From: Chloropicon primus
Lineage: Eukaryota
Direction: 5' to 3'
Length of the DNA: 64,000 nucleotides
Assembly (NCBI GenBank): GCA_023205875.1
Contig: CP060760.1
Span: forward strand, 558,001 to 622,000
Part shown: one piece after another, positions 3,221 to 48,568 of the stretch
Layout of the letters: the number at the start of each line of letters is the position of its first letter
Position numbering within the stretch: position 1 is the first letter of the stretch
Notes under the pieces: model-generated
What the model saw: only the letters and a program-made list of their open reading frames with translations
What the model was told of the DNA's origin: nothing
Database searches by the model: none
Made by a program: the position numbers and the translations under genes

Positions 3221-4045
3221 ATGGAGGAGGAGGGAGGGAAGAGGGTGGAGAGGGTTCGGGTTGACAAGTCCGGACGGCAGCTGTGGCTCGTCAAGGTACC
3301 GAAATCGGTGGACAAAGTCTGGAGGACGACGATGGAGGAGGCCGGCGACGGGGAAGGGATAGAGGTTGGGGAAGTCACGATCATTCAGAGCGACCAAGGG
3401 CAAGAGAGCACGAGCGCCGGGCAATTCAAGCTGGACCTGAGCGAGAGGCCCGGGTCAGACCGGATTCCACTGCATTACACGATGATTCCCTCGGTTTCCT
3501 CCGGGCAGGAGCTTATGTGCATGCACGCTCTCGCGCAGGACAGGGGAGCGGCGAGTGCCGGAGAGGCGACGAACCCAGCGATAGAGGGGCGAGTTGGCCA
3601 GCAGTTTGCCCTGCAGCCGAAGATGGGTCGCGAGTATTTCGCGATGTCGAGGCAGCGCTCGAAGCAGCAAGCCGGCGTGAGCGGAGGCGTGAGCAAGCCG
3701 AGGGTCATCAGCAGGGTTCACTTGAGCGACACCAGCGTCGTGCAGATGAGCAAGGAAGCCGTGCCGCTCCCCGTGTCGTACGTGGGAGGAGCCAAGTACA
3801 AGAGGGAGCATGGAAGGAAGCAGTCGGACTACAAGAGGGTCAAGATGGAAAACAAGGAGTCTCTCATGAACTGGCTGTTCGAGCTGTTCCAGAGGGAGCC
3901 GTACTGGCGCTTCGACGCCATTCAGAAGACGACGAATCAGCCCACGCGATTCCTCATGGACGTCCTGAGGGAGGTTGCCACCAAGGTGTTGGACGGCGAT
4001 CACCGTGGCAAGTGGGAGCTGAAGGACAAGTACAGGTCGTCCTAA
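3221..4045 (+). CDS. Transcription factor IIF beta subunit (RAP30/Tfg2)
   Basis: N-terminal LWLVKVPK motif; C-terminal winged helix LFELFQREPYW...TNQP..FL..VL.EVA...GKWELKDKY. Confidence 0.88.
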   Translation: MEEEGGKRVERVRVDKSGRQLWLVKVPKSVDKVWRTTMEEAGDGEGIEVGEVTIIQSDQGQESTSAGQFKLDLSERPGSDRIPLHYTMIPSVSSGQELMCMHALAQDRGAASAGEATNPAIEGRVGQQFALQPKMGREYFAMSRQRSKQQAGVSGGVSKPRVISRVHLSDTSVVQMSKEAVPLPVSYVGGAKYKREHGRKQSDYKRVKMENKESLMNWLFELFQREPYWRFDAIQKTTNQPTRFLMDVLREVATKVLDGDHRGKWELKDKYRSS

Positions 4046-4221
4046 CACGCCTCGCTGTGTGCACAGAGAGAGAGAGAGAGAGAGAGAGAGGGGAGAGGGA
4101 CTTTGAGGGACTTTGAGGAAGCGAAAGGTGAAGGAAAGACGCCTAAAATATATATGTAGTGAAGTGGAAACACGCGCTCCCACTTGCTTGGTACTCGCAG
4201 GGTCGTCCTTACTGGTAACGA

Positions 4222-5723
4222 TTACTGATCCAGGTTGCTCCCGAAAACGATGGGGTGGCAGCTCAGGTCCCGGAGGTTGACCAGCACGCACGTCTGCTTC
4301 TCCGCGAAGGAGGGGAGGGAGATCAGCCTCACCCTTTGGCCTTCCTTGCCCTCCGCGATCCCGGTCTCCAGGCTCGGCTGGTTGCCGGCAAAGTACACGT
4401 GGGGGCAGTCCTTGAGGACGAACGGGTCCTGGTCCACGAAAGGAAAGCAGGGCAGGGTGTCCGGGGCGGTTGGGGCGGAGTGGCACCACTCCAGGGTGGC
4501 GGCCATCGCTCCCAGCCTGTCCTCGTGCGCGACGTACTTCATCACGTCGTCGATGTTCTGGCCGCTCGTTCCCAGGAAGCTCACCCCGTCCACCTCAAAG
4601 CCGTGGGGGTTGGTCACCCTCCCCACGTTGGAGTAGCAGGTGGTGCTAGGCAGGAGGCACCTGTGCAGGGGCTGCTGAGGCATGGACACGTTGCAGGGAT
4701 CGGTGGGGCCCGGCATGACGTCGACCGGCATGCTCGACGCGATCTGGGTCAGGAACATGTCCGCCTCCCTGAGCCCCCCGACGCCCCGGCTCGCCTCCCT
4801 CTTGTCCTCCCCCATGGGGACCTGGCCCACCTCCTTGAGGGTGTTCCCCACCACGACCATCCTCGTGATCTTTCCCGCCAGCCCGTCGTAGTCCCCGAGC
4901 GCCCCCGTCACGTAGTCCGCCAGCAGCTGCAGGGGGAGGGGGTCCCGCTTCTCGTCCCCAAGCCCGAGGCCCGACACCAGGGCCACGTACTTGGCCTCCG
5001 AGTCCGGGACGACGGGCTCCTGCCTCGCCGGCCCGGGAAGGCAGACCTCCTTCACCACGAAGTTGCCCCCCTCCTCCTCCGTGCCCCTGACCGCGACGCA
5101 CACGCCCGAGACGAAGTCCGCCGGGTCGAGAGAGTCGCCCTTGCACCCCAAGTTCATCCTCGCCCCCTCGTCCTCCAGCACGAGAGTGTCGTCGCCAGAG
5201 ACGAACTTGGTCGAGGCCAGGTGCGTCTCCAGGCTCTTGTCCTTGGCGTACTCGTCCAGGACGCTCGGCTTCAGCTTCATGTTCTTGTACACCGTCCCGA
5301 CCACCGCGCACTCCACCCCGAGCTCCACCTCCAGGATCTTCCTCACCGGCACGGTGGGCCACTTGGCCTTCACCTTGTCCAAGACCAGCGGCGAAAGGTT
5401 CTGCAGCCTCTGGAAGTACAGGTGAGCGTACTGCTTGTTGTACACCCTGTCTCCCACGAGGTACGCGTCGTCCCGGCACTTGTAACTCCCGCGGGAGCGC
5501 TCCACGCCGCCGCCTTCGACATCATCAGCCTGTGACAGACCGAGGATGGCCAAGTCAGAAAGCGTTCGTGTTGGAGAGAGAGGGAGAGAGGGAGAGAGGG
5601 AGGGAGAGGGGGGGAGGGTCTCACCTGGGTGGTCGTGGCGAAGGGAAGGTCGGCGGCGGTCCTTGACCCCGCCTCCTCACGCACGACTTGGGTGTGAAAG
5701 AGCCTCGCGCTCGCGCCGGTCAT
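4222..5723 (-). CDS. POLD2: DNA polymerase delta small subunit, intron 5530-5624
   Basis: QYAHLYFQRL, LEDEGAR, MPGPTDP, PQQPLH, GTSGQN, APTAPDTL, CPHVYFAGNQ; upstream exon joins in frame. Confidence 0.95.
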
Positions 5724-28727: not shown

Positions 28728-29122
28728 GACAAACTCTCTGTCTCTCCCTCCCCCCTCTCAAGTCCTCGCCAGAACGTCGTTTCCTTCGAGCGACGGCTTT
28801 TTCGAAAGAGCGAGAGAAGACGATCCTTTCTCCCCTCTCTCCCTCTCCCTCTCCCTCTCCCTCCACAAACGCCCTCGCCCTCTCTCTGTTGTCCGCTGCC
28901 TCGCCCTCCTCCCTGAGCTGCTCTTCCGCCTCTCAAGTCCTCGCCAGAACGTCGTTCCCTTCGATCGACGGCTCTTTCGAAAGAGCAAGAGAAGACGCTT
29001 CCGATTGTTCGCTCCTCCTCTTCCCTCTCCTCCTCCACCGCGCTCTCCTGGCCGCCTTCTCTCTCTCTCTCTCTCCTCTGCTGCTCTTGCGCTCTCGGTT
29101 GTGTTCTGGGGGGAGCGAGGCG

Positions 29123-42210: not shown

Positions 42211-43518
42211 TCACCCCGACGACGACGTCGCTCGAAGGACGGCCTCGACGATGAGGTCCGAGGCCCTCTCGATCTCCTCTTCCGTTGTCAGCCTCCCCGT
42301 GCTGAGTCTCAGAGTGCCGCGCGCGTGGGCATCGTCCAAACCAATCGCCTTCAAGACCCCAGAGACGTGAAACCCGCCGCTGTGGCAGGCGGCGCCCGCC
42401 GAGGCCGCCACGGACTCGGAGAGATCCGCGAGGATCTCCTGCGCTTGCACCGCTGGAATCGAGATGCTCAAGGTGTTCGGCAGGGAGTTGGCCTCCTCCG
42501 CGGGGCCGTTAATTCTGTAATCAATGCCGTGGCTTCCCAGCGCTTCCACGAGCCGGCCTCGGAGCAAGTTTCGCGTCTTGAGCATGTTCCTCCTTATTTC
42601 CTTTCCTTCCAGCAAGGCGATCTCGCTCGCTTTCCCGATCCCGGAGATCAGGAGGACGTTCTCCGTGCCTGGCCTCATGCCATTCTCCTGCCCCCCGCCG
42701 TGCAGAAGAGAAGGAAATTCCCTGCTGTCCAGCGAGCAATACAGGGCCGCAACCCCCTTCGATGCACCGAACTTGTGGCCAACGACCGTGCACAAGTCGA
42801 CGCCAAGGGCCTCCACATCGACGTCGACCTTGCCCACGGACTGGGCGCCGTCAGTGTGCATCAAGGCACCGTGCGCGTGAGCAATTTTCGCGATCTCTGC
42901 GATCGGCTGGAGGCTCCCGATCTCGTTGTTGGAATGCATCACCGTGCACAGCACCGTCTCCCCCGTCCTGAAAGCCGCCTCCACCGCCTCCACGCTCAAA
43001 ACCCCGCTCTTCGTATCCACGGCCACTTCGGTGTAGTCGCACAGTCCTTCTCGCTTGTACTTGGCCAGCGCCTCCGCCACGGCCGGGTGCTCGATGTTGG
43101 ATGTCACCACATGAGGGAGGAAGTCGGAGCGCTTCGGCCTCTTCTGAGACCCGTACTCCAAAGCTCCTCGTATGGCCCAGTTGTTGGACTCCGTGCCAGA
43201 GCCCGTGAAGTACACCTGCAGGAGGAAAAAGGAAGAGGAGGGCAAAGATGGCGTCAGAGAACGGGCAATACCCCGAGAGCAACGAGAGAGGGCCTTCCTT
43301 ACCTGGGACGCTTTTGCGCCCAGCAAGTTCGCCACGCGCTCCCGAGCCAGGTCCAACGCTTGCTTCGGCACTCTCCCATAGGCGTGCGAGGAGGAAGGAT
43401 TCCCAAAGTGATCAAACAGGAACGGCTGCATCTCCTCCGCAACCTCCCTGTATATCGGACTCGTGCCGTTGTTGTCCAAATAAATACACCGCCGGGACGA
43501 CGCAACTTCTTTCGCCAT
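42211..43518 (-). CDS. NifS-like PLP enzyme, selenocysteine lyase-like; intron about 43217-43302
   Basis: IYLDNNGT, FGNPSS, HTDGAQ, GHKF, GGGQE..MRPGTEN, SAGAACHS. Confidence 0.88.
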   Translation of the reverse strand: MAKEVASSRRCIYLDNNGTSPIYREVAEEMQPFLFDHFGNPSSSHAYGRVPKQALDLARERVANLLGAKASQVRKALSRCSRGIARSLTPSLPSSSFFLLQVYFTGSGTESNNWAIRGALEYGSQKRPKRSDFLPHVVTSNIEHPAVAEALAKYKREGLCDYTEVAVDTKSGVLSVEAVEAAFRTGETVLCTVMHSNNEIGSLQPIAEIAKIAHAHGALMHTDGAQSVGKVDVDVEALGVDLCTVVGHKFGASKGVAALYCSLDSREFPSLLHGGGQENGMRPGTENVLLISGIGKASEIALLEGKEIRRNMLKTRNLLRGRLVEALGSHGIDYRINGPAEEANSLPNTLSISIPAVQAQEILADLSESVAASAGAACHSGGFHVSGVLKAIGLDDAHARGTLRLSTGRLTTEEEIERASDLIVEAVLRATSSSG

Positions 43519-43977
43519 CGTCGCCCTCAGCTGAATCCCCCGAGGGGCCAAAACACCTTGTCCTCCTTGTTGTCCTCCACGATGCCTCTCCGCGATTCCA
43601 CCAACCTTCATTCCCTTGCGAGAGGGTCAATCGAAAGCTCGAGAGAAAACAAACAAACAAAAAATAAATAAGAATGCTTTCGATCACCAGCACCTCCCCT
43701 GTCCTCGCTCTCGTCCTCGTCCTCGTCGCCGCGTTCCGTTCCGTTCCTCTCTCTCGTCCTCGCCCTCTGTCGCTCTCTCGTCCTTCTCTGGTTCCCGCGC
43801 AAAACAGAAACAGTGTTGGAGGTTTTCCCCTGTTGGTGGGATTCCAGTGTATACCAGTTTGGTCACACCCAAAGGACAACCCACTAAGCGTTTTTTTCGT
43901 GTTCTCACTTGCTGGACAAGGCAAATCTATAGTTACGAGGAGTTACGAGGAGGGCAGCGAGTGAAACCCTACCGGTC

Positions 43978-45941
43978 ATGGCGCGATCAGGGAAGCGCCG
44001 TAAGAAAAAGGAGAAGCAGGGGAGTGGCTCGACGAGTTCCACAAGGAGGTCGCACTCTGGCGAGAGTCATGCTCAGGGCGCTTCGAAGTCGGGGCAGGAG
44101 TCTCCGACGACGGAGCGGCCGTTACTTCCGTTCTGGAATCAGGGCTTGCAGTTGCTCTACGCGTTGTGCCTGCTTCCTACCGCGGACGACCCCGCCTCTG
44201 CGGGTGAGGGTTCGAGCTCGTCAGGCAAGCCTCGCAAGAAGCCTCGCAAGAAGGGCAAGAAGAAGAACAAGAAGAAGGGTAAGAAGAAGAAGAACAAGAG
44301 GGGGAAGAAAGCAGGGAAGCAGCCGGGTGGCTTGGCGGACGACAGCGTGAAGAAGACCTGGTTCTCATCGATCAAGAGAGAACTTGAAGAGGTAAAGTGT
44401 CCGAAGACGGGATGGAGGTCGTGCTTGAACCTTCCAGAAGATTCTGTGGTATCCGTGGAGACATTGCAGCCGCCCGCCAAAAGGAAGAGGGGGCAGAAGC
44501 TGAAGACCTCCAAGCTATTGTCGGAGCGAACGGTGATACGGACGAGGAAGCTTAGGATGCGCTTGAACCCTGAGCAGGCGAGAACACTTTGCAACTGGAT
44601 GGGAGCTGCGCGTTTCACATACAACAAGTGTTTGGAGGCGGTCAAGAAGGAGGGTTTTCCGCTGGTTTGGACCGTCCTGCTGGACAGATTTGTGACGGCC
44701 AAACCGCGACGCCCTGAGGTCTTTGAGGGCCTGGAGAAAGAGCTGAAAGAAATCCAATGCTCTCCACGGCCATGGACAAAACAGGAGGCAGAGCTTTTCG
44801 CATCCAAGTGGGCAAGGACCGGGACTACGTTAGCGGGGCCTTTGTGAATCAGAAGCATCCTTGGCTGAAGGAAACCCCCTGTGCCATCAGACAAGCTGCC
44901 GTGCGAAGTCTCATCAAGGCATGGGATTCGAACACCGCGAAGCAGGAAGCGATGAAGGAGCGCGGCGAGAAGAAGGGGCACCGCTTCGTTCTCAAGTATC
45001 GTCAACGTCAGCAACCGAGCTCTTGGACTATTGAAATTGATGCAAGAGAGTTAAAGAACGTGGAGACGATCGAAAGGCCAAACACGAGGCACAAGGATGA
45101 TACGAAGCACAAGAAACGACGCAAGTGGACCAAGCTGGAGGTGTTCAAGAAGAAGATGGCCGGCGGGCCCCTGTACTTGACGGAGGAGATCCCCGGGGGC
45201 AAGATCGAGGGTGCCGTGAAGATCACAAGAAATCGCCTTGGGCAGTTCCACATGCACATTCCCATCGCGACGCCATGGGATCGCCTGCCACCCCTGAAGC
45301 CTGAGAACAAGCGGAAGGTTGTCGCCCTGGATCCGGGAGTCAGGACCTTTCAGACGTCGTACTCGCCGCAAGAAGGCGTCGGGGAGTATGCCAAGGGCGA
45401 GCGAGGCTTCGCGAGGCTGTTCAACCTCTGCTGGAGGATTGATGAGATCATTTCCGAGCGCAAAGACCCAAAGGTGAAGCTCCCTTACCTCGACCGCCGC
45501 GACTTGAAGAGACAGCAATACGCCTGCATGGAGAAAATTCGAGGTCTGACGAACGAGCTTCACAAAAAGGTAGCCAACGATCTATGCAGGAGGTTCGACA
45601 CAATCCTCCTCCCGGAGTTCAAGTCCCAAGACATGGTGAAGAAGAACAACAACGGGAGACGCCGAGTGATCAGGAAGAAGACGGCTCGCACGCTCTTGAC
45701 GTTGAGGCACTATGCGTTCAGAACGTTCTTGGCTTCCAAGGTGCTCTTGCACGGCAGTGAGCTGGCGATCGTGACGGAGGAGTACACCTCCAAGACCTGT
45801 GGCAGGTGCGGACACATCAAGGACAACCTGGGTGGAGCAGAGGTGTACAAGTGCCAGAAGTGTGGCTTCAAGTGCGGTCGGGATGTGAACGGGGCACGCA
45901 ACGTCCTTCTCAAGCACTTGCGTCAACCAAAAAGTGTGTAA
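43978..45941 (+). mobile_element. Fanzor2 (IS607-type TnpB-derived) RNA-guided nuclease gene, split across two frames (43978-44847 and 44757-45941)
   Basis: PFWN and WFS N-terminal motifs, RTRKLRMRLNPEQ...WMGAARFTYN (OrfB HTH), WLKETP..IR..AV, RuvC-I ALDPGVRTF, ILLPEF, VTEEYTSKTCGRC, CQKC, RuvC-III RDVNGARN. Confidence 0.9.
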
Positions 45942-46083
45942 CTCCTCAGGGTTGCACATACGTTTGTTAGTACGGGCTGCCGTGCGTGGGCGGAAGTATT
46001 CGTTCATGTACGGTGGAATGGTCGTGGTAGGGCCGAATTACCCTGCCGAGAAACTTACAAACTCGGTGAAACGACCTTTGCAG
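45942..46083 (+). ncRNA. Putative Fanzor omega RNA scaffold
   Basis: 18-bp hairpin 45977-46016 with 7 G.U pairs, multibranch structure 46020-46076, ends in TGCAG; lies directly 3' of the nuclease ORF. Confidence 0.7.
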
Positions 46084-46252
46084 AAAACTAACAGGTAAGT
46101 TAGGGGCCGGTTCTCCTGTTTCTCTCCGTGTTTCTCTCTTTCAGTGGAAAGGAGAACTTGCCTTTGTGCTTCCAGTATTGACTGTGATTTCCCTACCGTC
46201 CTTTCGTGACTTTTCTGTGTGCTGTTTTTGATCTGATGTCTGAACACCATAA

Positions 46253-46465
46253 CAAACAGTAACGGGCGCCGACGCCGTTGAGTACTACTACCACTTGTAC
46301 GACTCCGACCTGATGCACCTCGCCGCTTTCCAGGGCAGCAAGCAGGTGCTGCAGTGGCTGCGAAGCCAGGACCCGCCTTGCCCTTGGATCCCAAACAGGT
46401 GCAGAATTGTGGCGAAGCACCGCAATCACCAGCGCGTCATCGAATGGATCAATGCCAATTCTTAA
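46253..46465 (+). pseudogene. Ankyrin-repeat gene fragment (no N-terminus)
   Basis: Not in the ORF track; translates to ...LYDSDLMHLAAFQGSKQVLQWLRSQDPPCPW...HQRVIEWINANS*, same family style as 23835-25178. Confidence 0.7.
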
Positions 46466-46724
46466 CCAAGAACAATCTCTTCCTGTCATCGACCTTCGCT
46501 TTCCTTCCTGGTTCCTCCTCTCCTCCTCTCTTTGTTTCTTTCTCTTCATTTTCTCCCTTCCGCTGAACCATCATAACGGCCCGAGGCCACGAGGGCGAAC
46601 ACAAGAGGGAGGAGAACGAGAGAAACGAAGAGGACGGGAGCGCGCGGAGGAGGAAAAGAGAGAGAAGGAGGACCGAACAGGCGAAACGTTCGTCTCTTGC
46701 TCTTTCGAAAGAGCCGTCGCAACC

Positions 46725-48568
46725 ATGGTGACGAGGTGGGGACTTTGCTGGGGGTTGGTCTGCCTGTGGCTCGGAGGGGTCACTGATACTGTTGTTGCGA
46801 CCAAGTACCACGCTGGCAGGGGCGAGGAAGAATTGGACACGATCTTCAGCCACGGGGCGCTCAACGAGTACCACCTTCAGGTCGGAAAGAGCCAATGGGA
46901 ATGGCTCAACACTCACGAGCTCCTCGAGGAGTACGTCGAAGGAAACCTTTCGTTCAAGAACTTCAACACCCCGGGAGGCGTTGGATCAGAAGAGTTGTTT
47001 GAGAAGGTGGGCATTCGCTACAAAGGGTCGAAGGGCAGTTTAGAGTATTGCTTTTCCAATGCCACGTCGGGTAACGAAGGATCGTCCCAGGTAATAATTC
47101 CTTCCCTCTCTCGTCCGAAAACTCTTTCTCTCTCTCTTGACTGACACCGCCGTTCGGCAACTCGTGCGATAGTGGAACAAGCGCTTGTGCAAAAAGCTGT
47201 CGATCAAGCTGAGCTTTGACAAGTACGACGACAGGGGCAGGTTTTATGATCAGAAGAAGCTCAATCTTCATGCGTAAGTGGGATCTCTTGATCGCTCGCA
47301 TCCCAGCCCTCGCCTGACTTGCCTTCCTTCCGTCCGTCGCTTCGGCGGTTGCTTCCAGCATGCAGAATGACCCTTCCTTGATGCGGGAGTGCCTAGCTTA
47401 CCACCTGTACCGGTCGATGGGACTCAAAGTATCTCGCTGTGCGCACGCCAAAGTTTTCGTCAATGGCAGGTATGAAGGCGTCTACCTCGCCGTGGAGAAT
47501 GTCGACTCGCGGTTCTTGGAACACCACTTTGGCGAGAAGGAGGGAGTTTTGTTCAAGGAGAAATGGCCAGGCATCGGCGAGGACGCGAATCACGCGGACT
47601 ACTTCTTGGAGGGAGTGAAGAACAGGAAAAGCTCGACAACCAAGAGCGATATCGAGCCAATGCTCAAGTTCTCTCAGAAACTTTGGGACGCGAAGGACTC
47701 GGACGAGGTGGCTCACGCATTACACAAGTACTGGAATCTGGAATCGATCACTCGGGTGCTGGCGGTTGCCTCGGTTATCGACGACTGGGACTCGTTCTTC
47801 ACCTTCTTCCCCAGCGACCCGAATCGTCACCAAGATCCAAGCAACGGACAGAGGCGCTTCAATCACAACTTTTACGTCTACCAAGATGGAGGAGGCAAAC
47901 TTAACCTCATTCACTGGGACACGGATCTGACTTTCAGTGAGTACGGATCGGTGCTGGAATTATTCTTCGGTTTGCCGGCTTGGAACGTGCCATTATGCGA
48001 GCCTCACAACAGGAGGTCGACGACATGCACGCCTTGCAAGGAGTACTTGCCGTACAACGTGTCGCAGGGGTCGCCGACGAACGGTGGAATATTGCCAGGG
48101 GCGGGGTGCGATAAGATCCTCAATTTCATCGCGACGGACCCGGCGACCAGGGAGGGTTACTTGAAGGACTCCTGGTACTTCCTTCAACGCGTCTTCATCC
48201 CAAGCGAGCTGGAAAAGGTGGTTCGGGCTTGGCAAGCTCGCGGGCTGGAGGAAGCACACCGGTGCGACCCGAACTATCCGGCGGGCAAGGGCATATTTCC
48301 GGACCCCAGCCAGAACGGAACGGCGGTGAATTGGAAGGAGGAGGTCCAAAGCCTTCTGGGCACGATAAGGCAAGAGTACAAATTGGCCTTGGAGAGGACC
48401 AACCCAGTGTACCAGCCGCACGTTCCTGACCGGAAGAAGATTGGGAAGGTCTTCAAGTGCGTCACGGACTGCTCCAAGTTCATGTCAAGACACGACATCA
48501 AGTCGCTCTACACTTGCTACAGCATCTGCCTCCACGAGGTTTCACCATTCGCCAGCTCGCAGGTGTAA
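46725..48568 (+). CDS. Secreted CotH-family kinase-like protein (2 introns; boundaries of the first uncertain)
   Basis: Signal peptide, VGIRYKG, SIKLSFDKY, DPSLMRECLAY, VFVNG.Y.GVYLAVE.VD, DDWDS, NHNFYVY, WDTDLTF. Confidence 0.85.

Follow-up and report, generated by a model that had tools for sequence, protein, structure and literature searches.

A frameshifted, probably inactive copy of a multicopy Fanzor2* element in Chloropicon primus, with possible traces of an IS607 ancestry

The locus described here lies in a window of 64,000 nucleotides (contig CP060760.1, positions 558,001 to 622,000) and is very probably a frameshifted, likely inactive copy of a multicopy C. primus Fanzor2* element of 2,441 bp, with TG..CA termini and a 5-bp target-site duplication (TSD). 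The element is likely moved by a borrowed integrase-type transposase, and the product of its intact sister copies is likely a DNA nuclease guided by RNA. Its limits are as follows.

43814..46254, + strand: whole element, 2,441 bp, non-autonomous, TG..CA termini; contigs of run X8 diverge at both ends, with a depth step
43809..43813, + strand: left 5-bp TSD, identical to 46255-46259
46255..46259, + strand: right 5-bp TSD; with the next ~15 nt, a rival locus-specific guide

We propose that an IS607 element whose tnpA was also read, in a second frame, as the N-terminus of Fanzor2 lodged inside a small TG..CA element, that tnpA then decayed while the Fanzor frame was kept, and that the dead tnpA frame received an insertion of a Lys-rich repeat block. 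From the biology of TnpB and Fanzor proteins, intact copies would be transcribed, and the protein would enter the nucleus by means of its basic N-terminus, as demonstrated for ApmFz2, and bind an RNA encoded past the ORF. Element-free alleles would be cut, and repair would copy the element back, as in the TnpB model. In the window copy, a loss of 49 bp between two 18-bp repeats would leave a 289-aa product without RuvC. Because its ends and RNA region look intact, this copy might still serve as a substrate for transposition or provide RNA in trans.

As a Fanzor discovery, the locus carries little weight because the family is in print and the copy is broken. Its value is that of a snapshot of an IS607 nuclease changing its vehicle in a eukaryote: among the relatives, tnpA has decayed to different degrees while the overlapping Fanzor frame was preserved, and the predicted nuclear-localisation signal (NLS) sits in the dead transposase frame.

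The Fanzor2 gene and its published family

The gene is spread over two overlapping reading frames.

43978..44847, + strand: ORF1, 289 aa; N-terminal extension of Fanzor2, beginning of WED with the HTH, and first helices of REC
44727..45941, + strand: ORF2, 404 aa stop to stop; remaining REC, WED and RuvC
44353..44370, + strand: RuvC-R-like motif, from a profile alignment to the ApmFz2 segment around Asn82/Ser83 (part of PMC11832414)
44227..44310, + strand: Lys/Arg-rich block, repeating every 12 nt, that is a predicted NLS and lies between two tnpA fossil pieces

The initial annotation recognized a TnpB-like architecture across these frames, and Pfam searches agreed, with PF12323 (HTH_OrfB) at ORF1 aa 187-223 (E 9e-8) and PF07282 (TNB domain) in ORF2 (E 2e-18). 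ORF2 also matched NF040570 (E 5e-27) at 95 bits, below the 100-bit cut-off, and the pro-Fanzor/Fanzor regular expression of PMC10711439 (DPG...E-x6-CxxC...CxxC...D) fits its aa 202-386. The landmarks of ORF2 are DPG at 45330, EEYTSKTC at 45777, the second CxxC at 45852, and RDVN at 45879. The catalytic D (45330), alternative E (45777), and D (45882) as well as the C4 zinc finger are all intact, as had been claimed, and the D, G, and E of RuvC are invariant across 81 aligned rows. At the ILLPEF landmark, by contrast, the E position is variable among 16 aligned relatives (V, A, I, S, and K were found); the glutamate that never varies is the first one in VTEEY, which precedes the first CxxC by six residues.

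The best PDB sequence match of ORF2 was the mimivirus Fanzor2 9b0l (E 2e-20). A family profile matched 9b0l at E 2e-79, aligned from residue 76; canonical TnpBs begin only at position ~187 of this profile, and the N-terminal domain is present in the Fanzor2 family. A structure model of P0154, a full-length relative that is 59% identical (pLDDT 81.8), also had 9b0l as its best match (E 4e-21). By sequence and structure model, the family is closer to ApmFz2 than to TnpB, Cas12f, or Fanzor1, and the gene at this locus is, judged from its sequence, a real Fanzor2.

ApmFz2 (Acanthamoeba polyphaga mimivirus L79, PDB 9B0L; parts of PMC11832414 and PMC10530073) has the same DPG/alternative Glu/zinc finger/RD triad, and also an N-terminal domain with a RuvC-R motif and a disordered basic N-terminus. 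However, it is only ~18% identical to P0154, the algal family has extra insertions in REC and WED, and ApmFz2 belongs to a viral IS607 element with TnpA and has demonstrated activity, whereas the algal family is known here from sequence. By analogy with ApmFz2, the Lys-rich block is plausibly a nuclear-localisation signal. This block differs from copy to copy and is missing in P0005, contigs have loose ends at 44193, and the published long-read calls include a 79-bp heterozygous deletion inside such a block (PMC6731263, Supplementary Data 8, parts 1-4 of 5).

The four best of 858 protein matches were C. primus 'putative IS605 transposases' that were 87-99% identical. The members of this C. primus cluster are spread over several chromosome-sized contigs, and the best IMG/VR match is only 25-48% identical. 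The Fanzor2 identity and the eukaryotic host of the initial annotation are both supported. ORF2 equals UPR02811.1, an entry of Table S3 of PMC10711439, at 376 of 385 residues. In the parts of their article drawn on here, Yoon et al. (NAR 2023; PMC10711439) classed the Fanzor2 of C. primus as a Fanzor2*, carried by a non-autonomous element of the cut-and-paste type with terminal inverted repeats (TIRs), and in its preprint (bioRxiv 2023.08.09.552727, in part) the element has a variable 5-nt TSD and no autonomous partner. The genome paper (PMC6731263, in part) counted 25 such 'IS605 transposase' genes, 23 of which had an RNA-seq depth >19 with multi-mapping unresolved. The family is already published, and this locus is a broken copy of it: it shares with the Fanzor2* of PMC10711439 the family, the 5-nt TSD, the degenerate TIRs, and the lack of a transposase inside, but differs in being frameshifted. 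The tnpA fossil, TG..CA signature, inner IS607 end, and splice donor presented below are not mentioned in the parts of the PMC10711439 text considered, and its Figures 2, 4, and S3 may show some of them.

A proposed IS607 ancestry and the predicted RNA end

44040..44543, + strand, -1 frame of ORF1: fossil IS607 tnpA (serine recombinase), in pieces ~44040-44225 and 44328-44543

A decayed tnpA likely persists as a weak trace under the Fanzor N-terminus. The two pieces are collinear and separated by the Lys-rich block; where an IS607 element would hold an intact serine recombinase TnpA, there is only this fossil with stop codons and no recognisable catalytic motif. The fossil scored 24.4 bits (E 4e-7) against a profile of six near TnpAs and 17.8 bits (E 5e-5) against a profile of four intact TnpAs, compared with 10.2 and 10.6 bits, respectively, for the best of 486 control frames, and none of 300 synonymous recodings reached the real score. 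Against distant TnpAs, it scored 8.6 bits, not above the best control (9.9 bits), and NCBIfam gave no match in five stop-free pieces of the -1 frame.

The same overlap recurs in other loci. tnpA adjoins Fanzor in 112 of 160 viral and metagenome loci, with a core of at least 110 codons in 102, from which 74 representatives with <70% identity were taken. Over the tnpA core, the +1 frame contained nine stops compared with 583.5 expected from synonymous recoding and was stop-free in 70 of the 74, whereas the +2 frame contained 607 compared with 830 expected and was stop-free in none. The overlapping frame was also stop-free in 22 of 24 representatives of a prokaryotic set (80 loci). In a set collected by TnpA profile (28 loci, 22 representatives), it was stop-free in all five loci with a DPG-type TnpB, two of which had already been found through Fanzor, and otherwise in none of six with a canonical TnpB, none of nine without TnpB, and one of two unclassified. 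The stretch overlapping tnpA aligns to ApmFz2 from residue 76, which is its RuvC-R and thumb region.

In IS607 elements with a pro-Fanzor or Fanzor2 (L081-L088, L167, L168, and L175), Fanzor likewise overlaps the resolvase region of tnpA with the same offset between the frames, and a similar helix precedes the terminal (C/G)G. These relatives keep tnpA intact (L084-L086 and L088) or lightly damaged (L081 and L082) and have no TSD, whereas the C. primus element has only a faint trace of tnpA, and its old right end now lies within new ends. In a 59-row tree with no Fanzor1 or canonical TnpB outgroup, the family falls in the starred 31-row clade with tnpA-bearing marine elements, nested at 100/99 support. 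The tnpA fossil, inner IS607 right end, and integrase-type end fit were not found in the literature searched on Fanzor, IS607, and Chloropicon. The word 'overlap' is absent from the portions considered of PMC3627910, PMC10711439, and PMC11832414, and the 'overlap' passages in those of PMC10530073, PMC10432273, and bioRxiv 2023.08.09.552727 are not about tnpA.

Individual relatives differ in the state of tnpA: in L082 (470-860), a stop falls within the tnpA catalytic motif with the Fanzor frame intact; in L081 (1303-1600), the 5' part of tnpA is gone, again with an intact Fanzor frame; and in L083, no decay remnant of tnpA was detectable. The tnpA-less relative in L083, which is 52% identical, is flanked by a direct repeat of ~100 bp (L083:1217-1567 and 3303-3700), and other genes on that contig look algal-giant-virus-like, which suggests a third kind of vehicle for the clade.

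Downstream of the ORF, the following features are predicted.

45942..46095, + strand: predicted omega-RNA scaffold, up to the ancestral IS607 right end as inferred; long hairpin near 45975-46016
46095..46144, + strand: splice-donor motif at 46095 and 50-nt intron-like stretch, the first ~20 nt being a candidate element-internal guide

The insertion sites of IS607 are dinucleotide cores, and the base next to the element becomes part of the scaffold. Here, a 7-bp helix (45965-45971/46087-46093) is followed by GG, and the ancestral IS607 right end seems to lie at 46095, 159 bp inside the present end. Similar helices with changed pairs, starting 22-29 nt past the stop, are present in L081, L082, L084, L085, and L088; among seven families with copy-fixed right ends, a helix closing 2 nt before the end was found in two, and the other five showed no fit. 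In the window alone, the helix is not significant (53 of 500 shuffles reach it); the fold z for 45942-46259 is -2.1, and Rfam contained no family for the RNA region, with one chance match at E 0.84.

The RNA contigs of runs X4 and X5 end at 46094 and that of X7 runs into foreign sequence at 46095, whereas DNA contigs of X8, X9, and X11 run through 46094-46095. The joint 46094-46145 is absent among the contig joints listed, and these stops give a weak hint of splicing at the donor. The bases past 46095 are similar in two published insertions (noisy reads); therefore, a guide starting there would be common to copies. The candidate guide matches only itself within the 64-kb window, and it may be fixed and removable by splicing.

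Taken as a whole, this would mean that the captured IS607 kept its own right end and a fixed internal guide, that the junction of scaffold and guide became a spliceosomal donor, and that the unspliced RNA directs cutting of Fanzor-free carriers while splicing removes or replaces the guide. We consider the full combination rather unlikely, and it is the part of this analysis that is worth an experiment. If true, the cutting of Fanzor-free versions of the carrier would amount to homing among members of one transposon family; a spliced RNA would either lose its guide or gain a host exon in its place; and the system would be a eukaryotic, spliceosome-based counterpart of the IStron conflict. In IStrons (part of PMC10690162), splicing likewise severs the omega-RNA scaffold from its guide; however, the intron there is a self-splicing group I intron whose 3' splice site coincides with the end of the element, and the effect is known from experiments, whereas the C. 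primus element has a predicted spliceosomal 5' donor that is seen only as contig ends. A short, Fanzor-free version of the element, which is the target predicted by a fixed guide, was absent from parts 1-4 of 5 of Supplementary Data 8 of PMC6731263.

Alternatively, the scaffold may reach the new right end, with the TSD and flank serving as a guide that is specific to the locus and directed at the empty donor site, as published for Fanzor2* generally; this stands at roughly an even chance. The parts of PMC10711439 considered predict TIR and TSD inside the scaffold for both Fanzor1 and Fanzor2*, and the strand 45965-45969 can also pair over 5 bp with 46250-46254 (read from the letters, not computed). 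However, the helix ending at 46093 with its GG has counterparts at the same position with changed pairs in the five IS607 relatives named above, such a helix also occurs in two families with copy-fixed ends, and RNA contigs of three studies break at 46094-46095. A guide at the inner end and one from the flank are about equally likely. The distinction matters because C. primus is a culturable alga with ~25 recently mobile copies, and the end of the guide RNA decides what the nucleases cut in their host.

The frame break in the REC region

44784..44801, + strand: 18-bp direct repeat, sole remaining copy and site of the 49-bp loss; the longer form is present in X4, X5, X7, and X11

The window sequence lacks 49 bp (31 bp and one 18-bp repeat), which is a frameshift in the predicted REC region. 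Runs X4, X5, X7, and X11 have 31 extra letters past 44801, followed by a second copy of 44784-44801; runs X1 and X2 have loose contig ends at the repeat, and comparison with paralogs P0004, P0005, and P0126 also places the loss at this site. Two overlapping ORFs are seen because one of the two repeats and the 31 bp are missing: ORF1 is out of frame past 44801 and meets its stop codon at 44845-44847, and a continuous ORF is present in sister copies and not in the window copy. That this copy encodes a protein of about 654 aa, as initially annotated, is not supported, given the frameshift; the family protein with this N-terminus would have ~670 residues. The break is more than a one-base slip, considering the extra sequence in other copies.

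The loss was seen in the window and in two NCBI models, P0003 and P0123, both of which skip the region via a predicted intron. These are models of this locus because they equal ORF1 at 212 of 212 residues and their tails are ankyrin-like text from downstream of the element. For cloning, wrong templates are these database models, with an invented intron and a fused ankyrin-like tail, and N-truncated paralogs without the RuvC-R region. Intact copies read the 18-bp repeat in two different frames, and the second repeat is diverged in other copies, which suggests that the window allele was predisposed to deletion.

It is improbable that the frameshift reflects an assembly collapse of the two repeats, with a copy that is intact in the cell. 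Short direct repeats among ~25 near-identical copies invite consensus collapse, and every contig listed over 44784-44801 in eight runs has the longer form or ends there, the deleted form being absent among them. On the other hand, two separate NCBI models that differ at two C-terminal sites both omit the same region, a single-copy variant would be a short contig of low depth that is easily missed among the contigs listed, and internal deletions occur in other copies too (P0005).

The possibility that splicing or ribosomal frameshifting restores the frame in vivo, such that the locus makes an active nuclease, is very slight. NCBI models place an intron here, and the frame would be mended by either of two GT..AG candidates (83 and 101 nt), but the modelled intron or either candidate would delete conserved REC sequence, and no slippery heptamer was seen by eye. 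The contigs of X4 and X5, which are RNA runs according to a spliced host intron, cross 44325-44801 unspliced, as do those of X7, although these come from other copies. The letters of X4 and X5 differ from the window at several places; therefore, expression is shown for sister copies and not for the window copy.

Mobility, mobiliser, and neighbourhood

The element starts with TGTT and finishes with AACA, and its inverted ends are short and degenerate (the first 4 bases, and 7 of the first 12). Two marine-metagenome contigs (X8) depart from the window exactly at 43813 and 46254, one of which matches from 43813 and is preceded by 24 foreign letters. In DNA run X1, long contigs of the element have a depth of 4,078-4,904, compared with 147-171 for the flanks; this depth is not a copy number, and the excess is in line with the 25 genes of the genome paper (PMC6731263). 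No read covers 31 letters on each side of the left junction (in X1, the reach into the element is 27 bases). No empty-site joint was present among the contigs listed in eight runs, three of which are metagenomes without coverage of the flanking genes and therefore uninformative here. Inverted repeats at 43700-43790/46590-46680 were considered as element ends and rejected as low-complexity host sequence, a motif at 46609-46720 recurring at 28790-29078.

Three heterozygous insertions of 2,664-2,707 bp start with the element's ends and make up three of the five insertions >2 kb in Supplementary Data 8 of PMC6731263 (parts 1-4 of 5); one of them, next to a call of a large deletion, may be a complex event. 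The element is recently mobile in C. primus, as observed in these published long-read data, and it is therefore not a domesticated gene. The suggestion that it is non-autonomous or retained on its own thus holds for the former and fails for the latter in the sense of domestication, with ~25 recently mobile copies bearing TSDs. In 12 C. primus sequences, the variants form a mosaic of the kind that gene conversion between copies would produce. The few visible target duplications tend to begin with A and end with G, and are too few and too noisy for a target preference.

With TIRs of only four perfect bases, a TSD, several copies, and no IS607 TnpA, the element has the features of a Fanzor2*. An IS607 element would have no TIR or TSD and would end at a GG core; the only GG-type end proposed here is an internal one. 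A domesticated gene would be single-copy, fixed, and intact in frame, none of which was found. That the locus is a domesticated single-copy host gene, or bacterial or viral contamination, can be dismissed almost entirely: it sits among ordinary algal genes with similar GC (0.55 vs 0.58) and the relative in L083 keeps company with giant-virus-like genes, but the TSD, copy number, heterozygous insertions, and broken frame speak against domestication or contamination, as do, for contamination, the low IMG/VR identity and the absence of exact matches to the right end in viral contigs (right-end pattern, 0 matches).

Regarding the mobiliser, both ends fit TGTNR and the TSD is 5 bp. TGTNR termini and TSDs of 4-5 bp are typical of Ginger2/TDD and LTR integrases (parts of PMC2836005 and PMC10045372), and these two traits are what the element has in common with Ginger2/TDD and LTR-retrotransposon integrases. 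Unlike them, it has no integrase gene and no long TIR or LTR, the link being the end signature only; a Ginger2 TIR spans 50-180 bp, well beyond the length of the inverted ends here. No intact transposase or integrase family was detected in the 134 window ORFs of at least 175 aa (Pfam, E<=1e-5), and the claim that the window holds no transposase stands to this extent, with the reservation that a decayed tnpA is detectable inside the element. From its end signature, the element is likely moved in trans by a borrowed integrase-type DDE enzyme, which points to a candidate class of enzyme for the mobiliser left unidentified by Yoon et al.

The element lies between a NifS-type aminotransferase gene, the 87-nt intron of which (43214-43300) is confirmed by spliced contigs in X4 and X5, and a CotH-family kinase gene at 47318-48565 (Pfam, E 7e-33). 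To its right, 46260-46465 is a short ankyrin-like remnant of an expanded family; its open frame, which has no start codon, extends through the empty site, and in NCBI models the remnant is fused to Fanzor. The host repeat at 46609-46720, also found at 28966-29078 and 28790-28820, has a conserved core, occurs at least three times in the window upstream of genes and in many RNA and DNA contigs, and is possibly a promoter or 5' UTR element.
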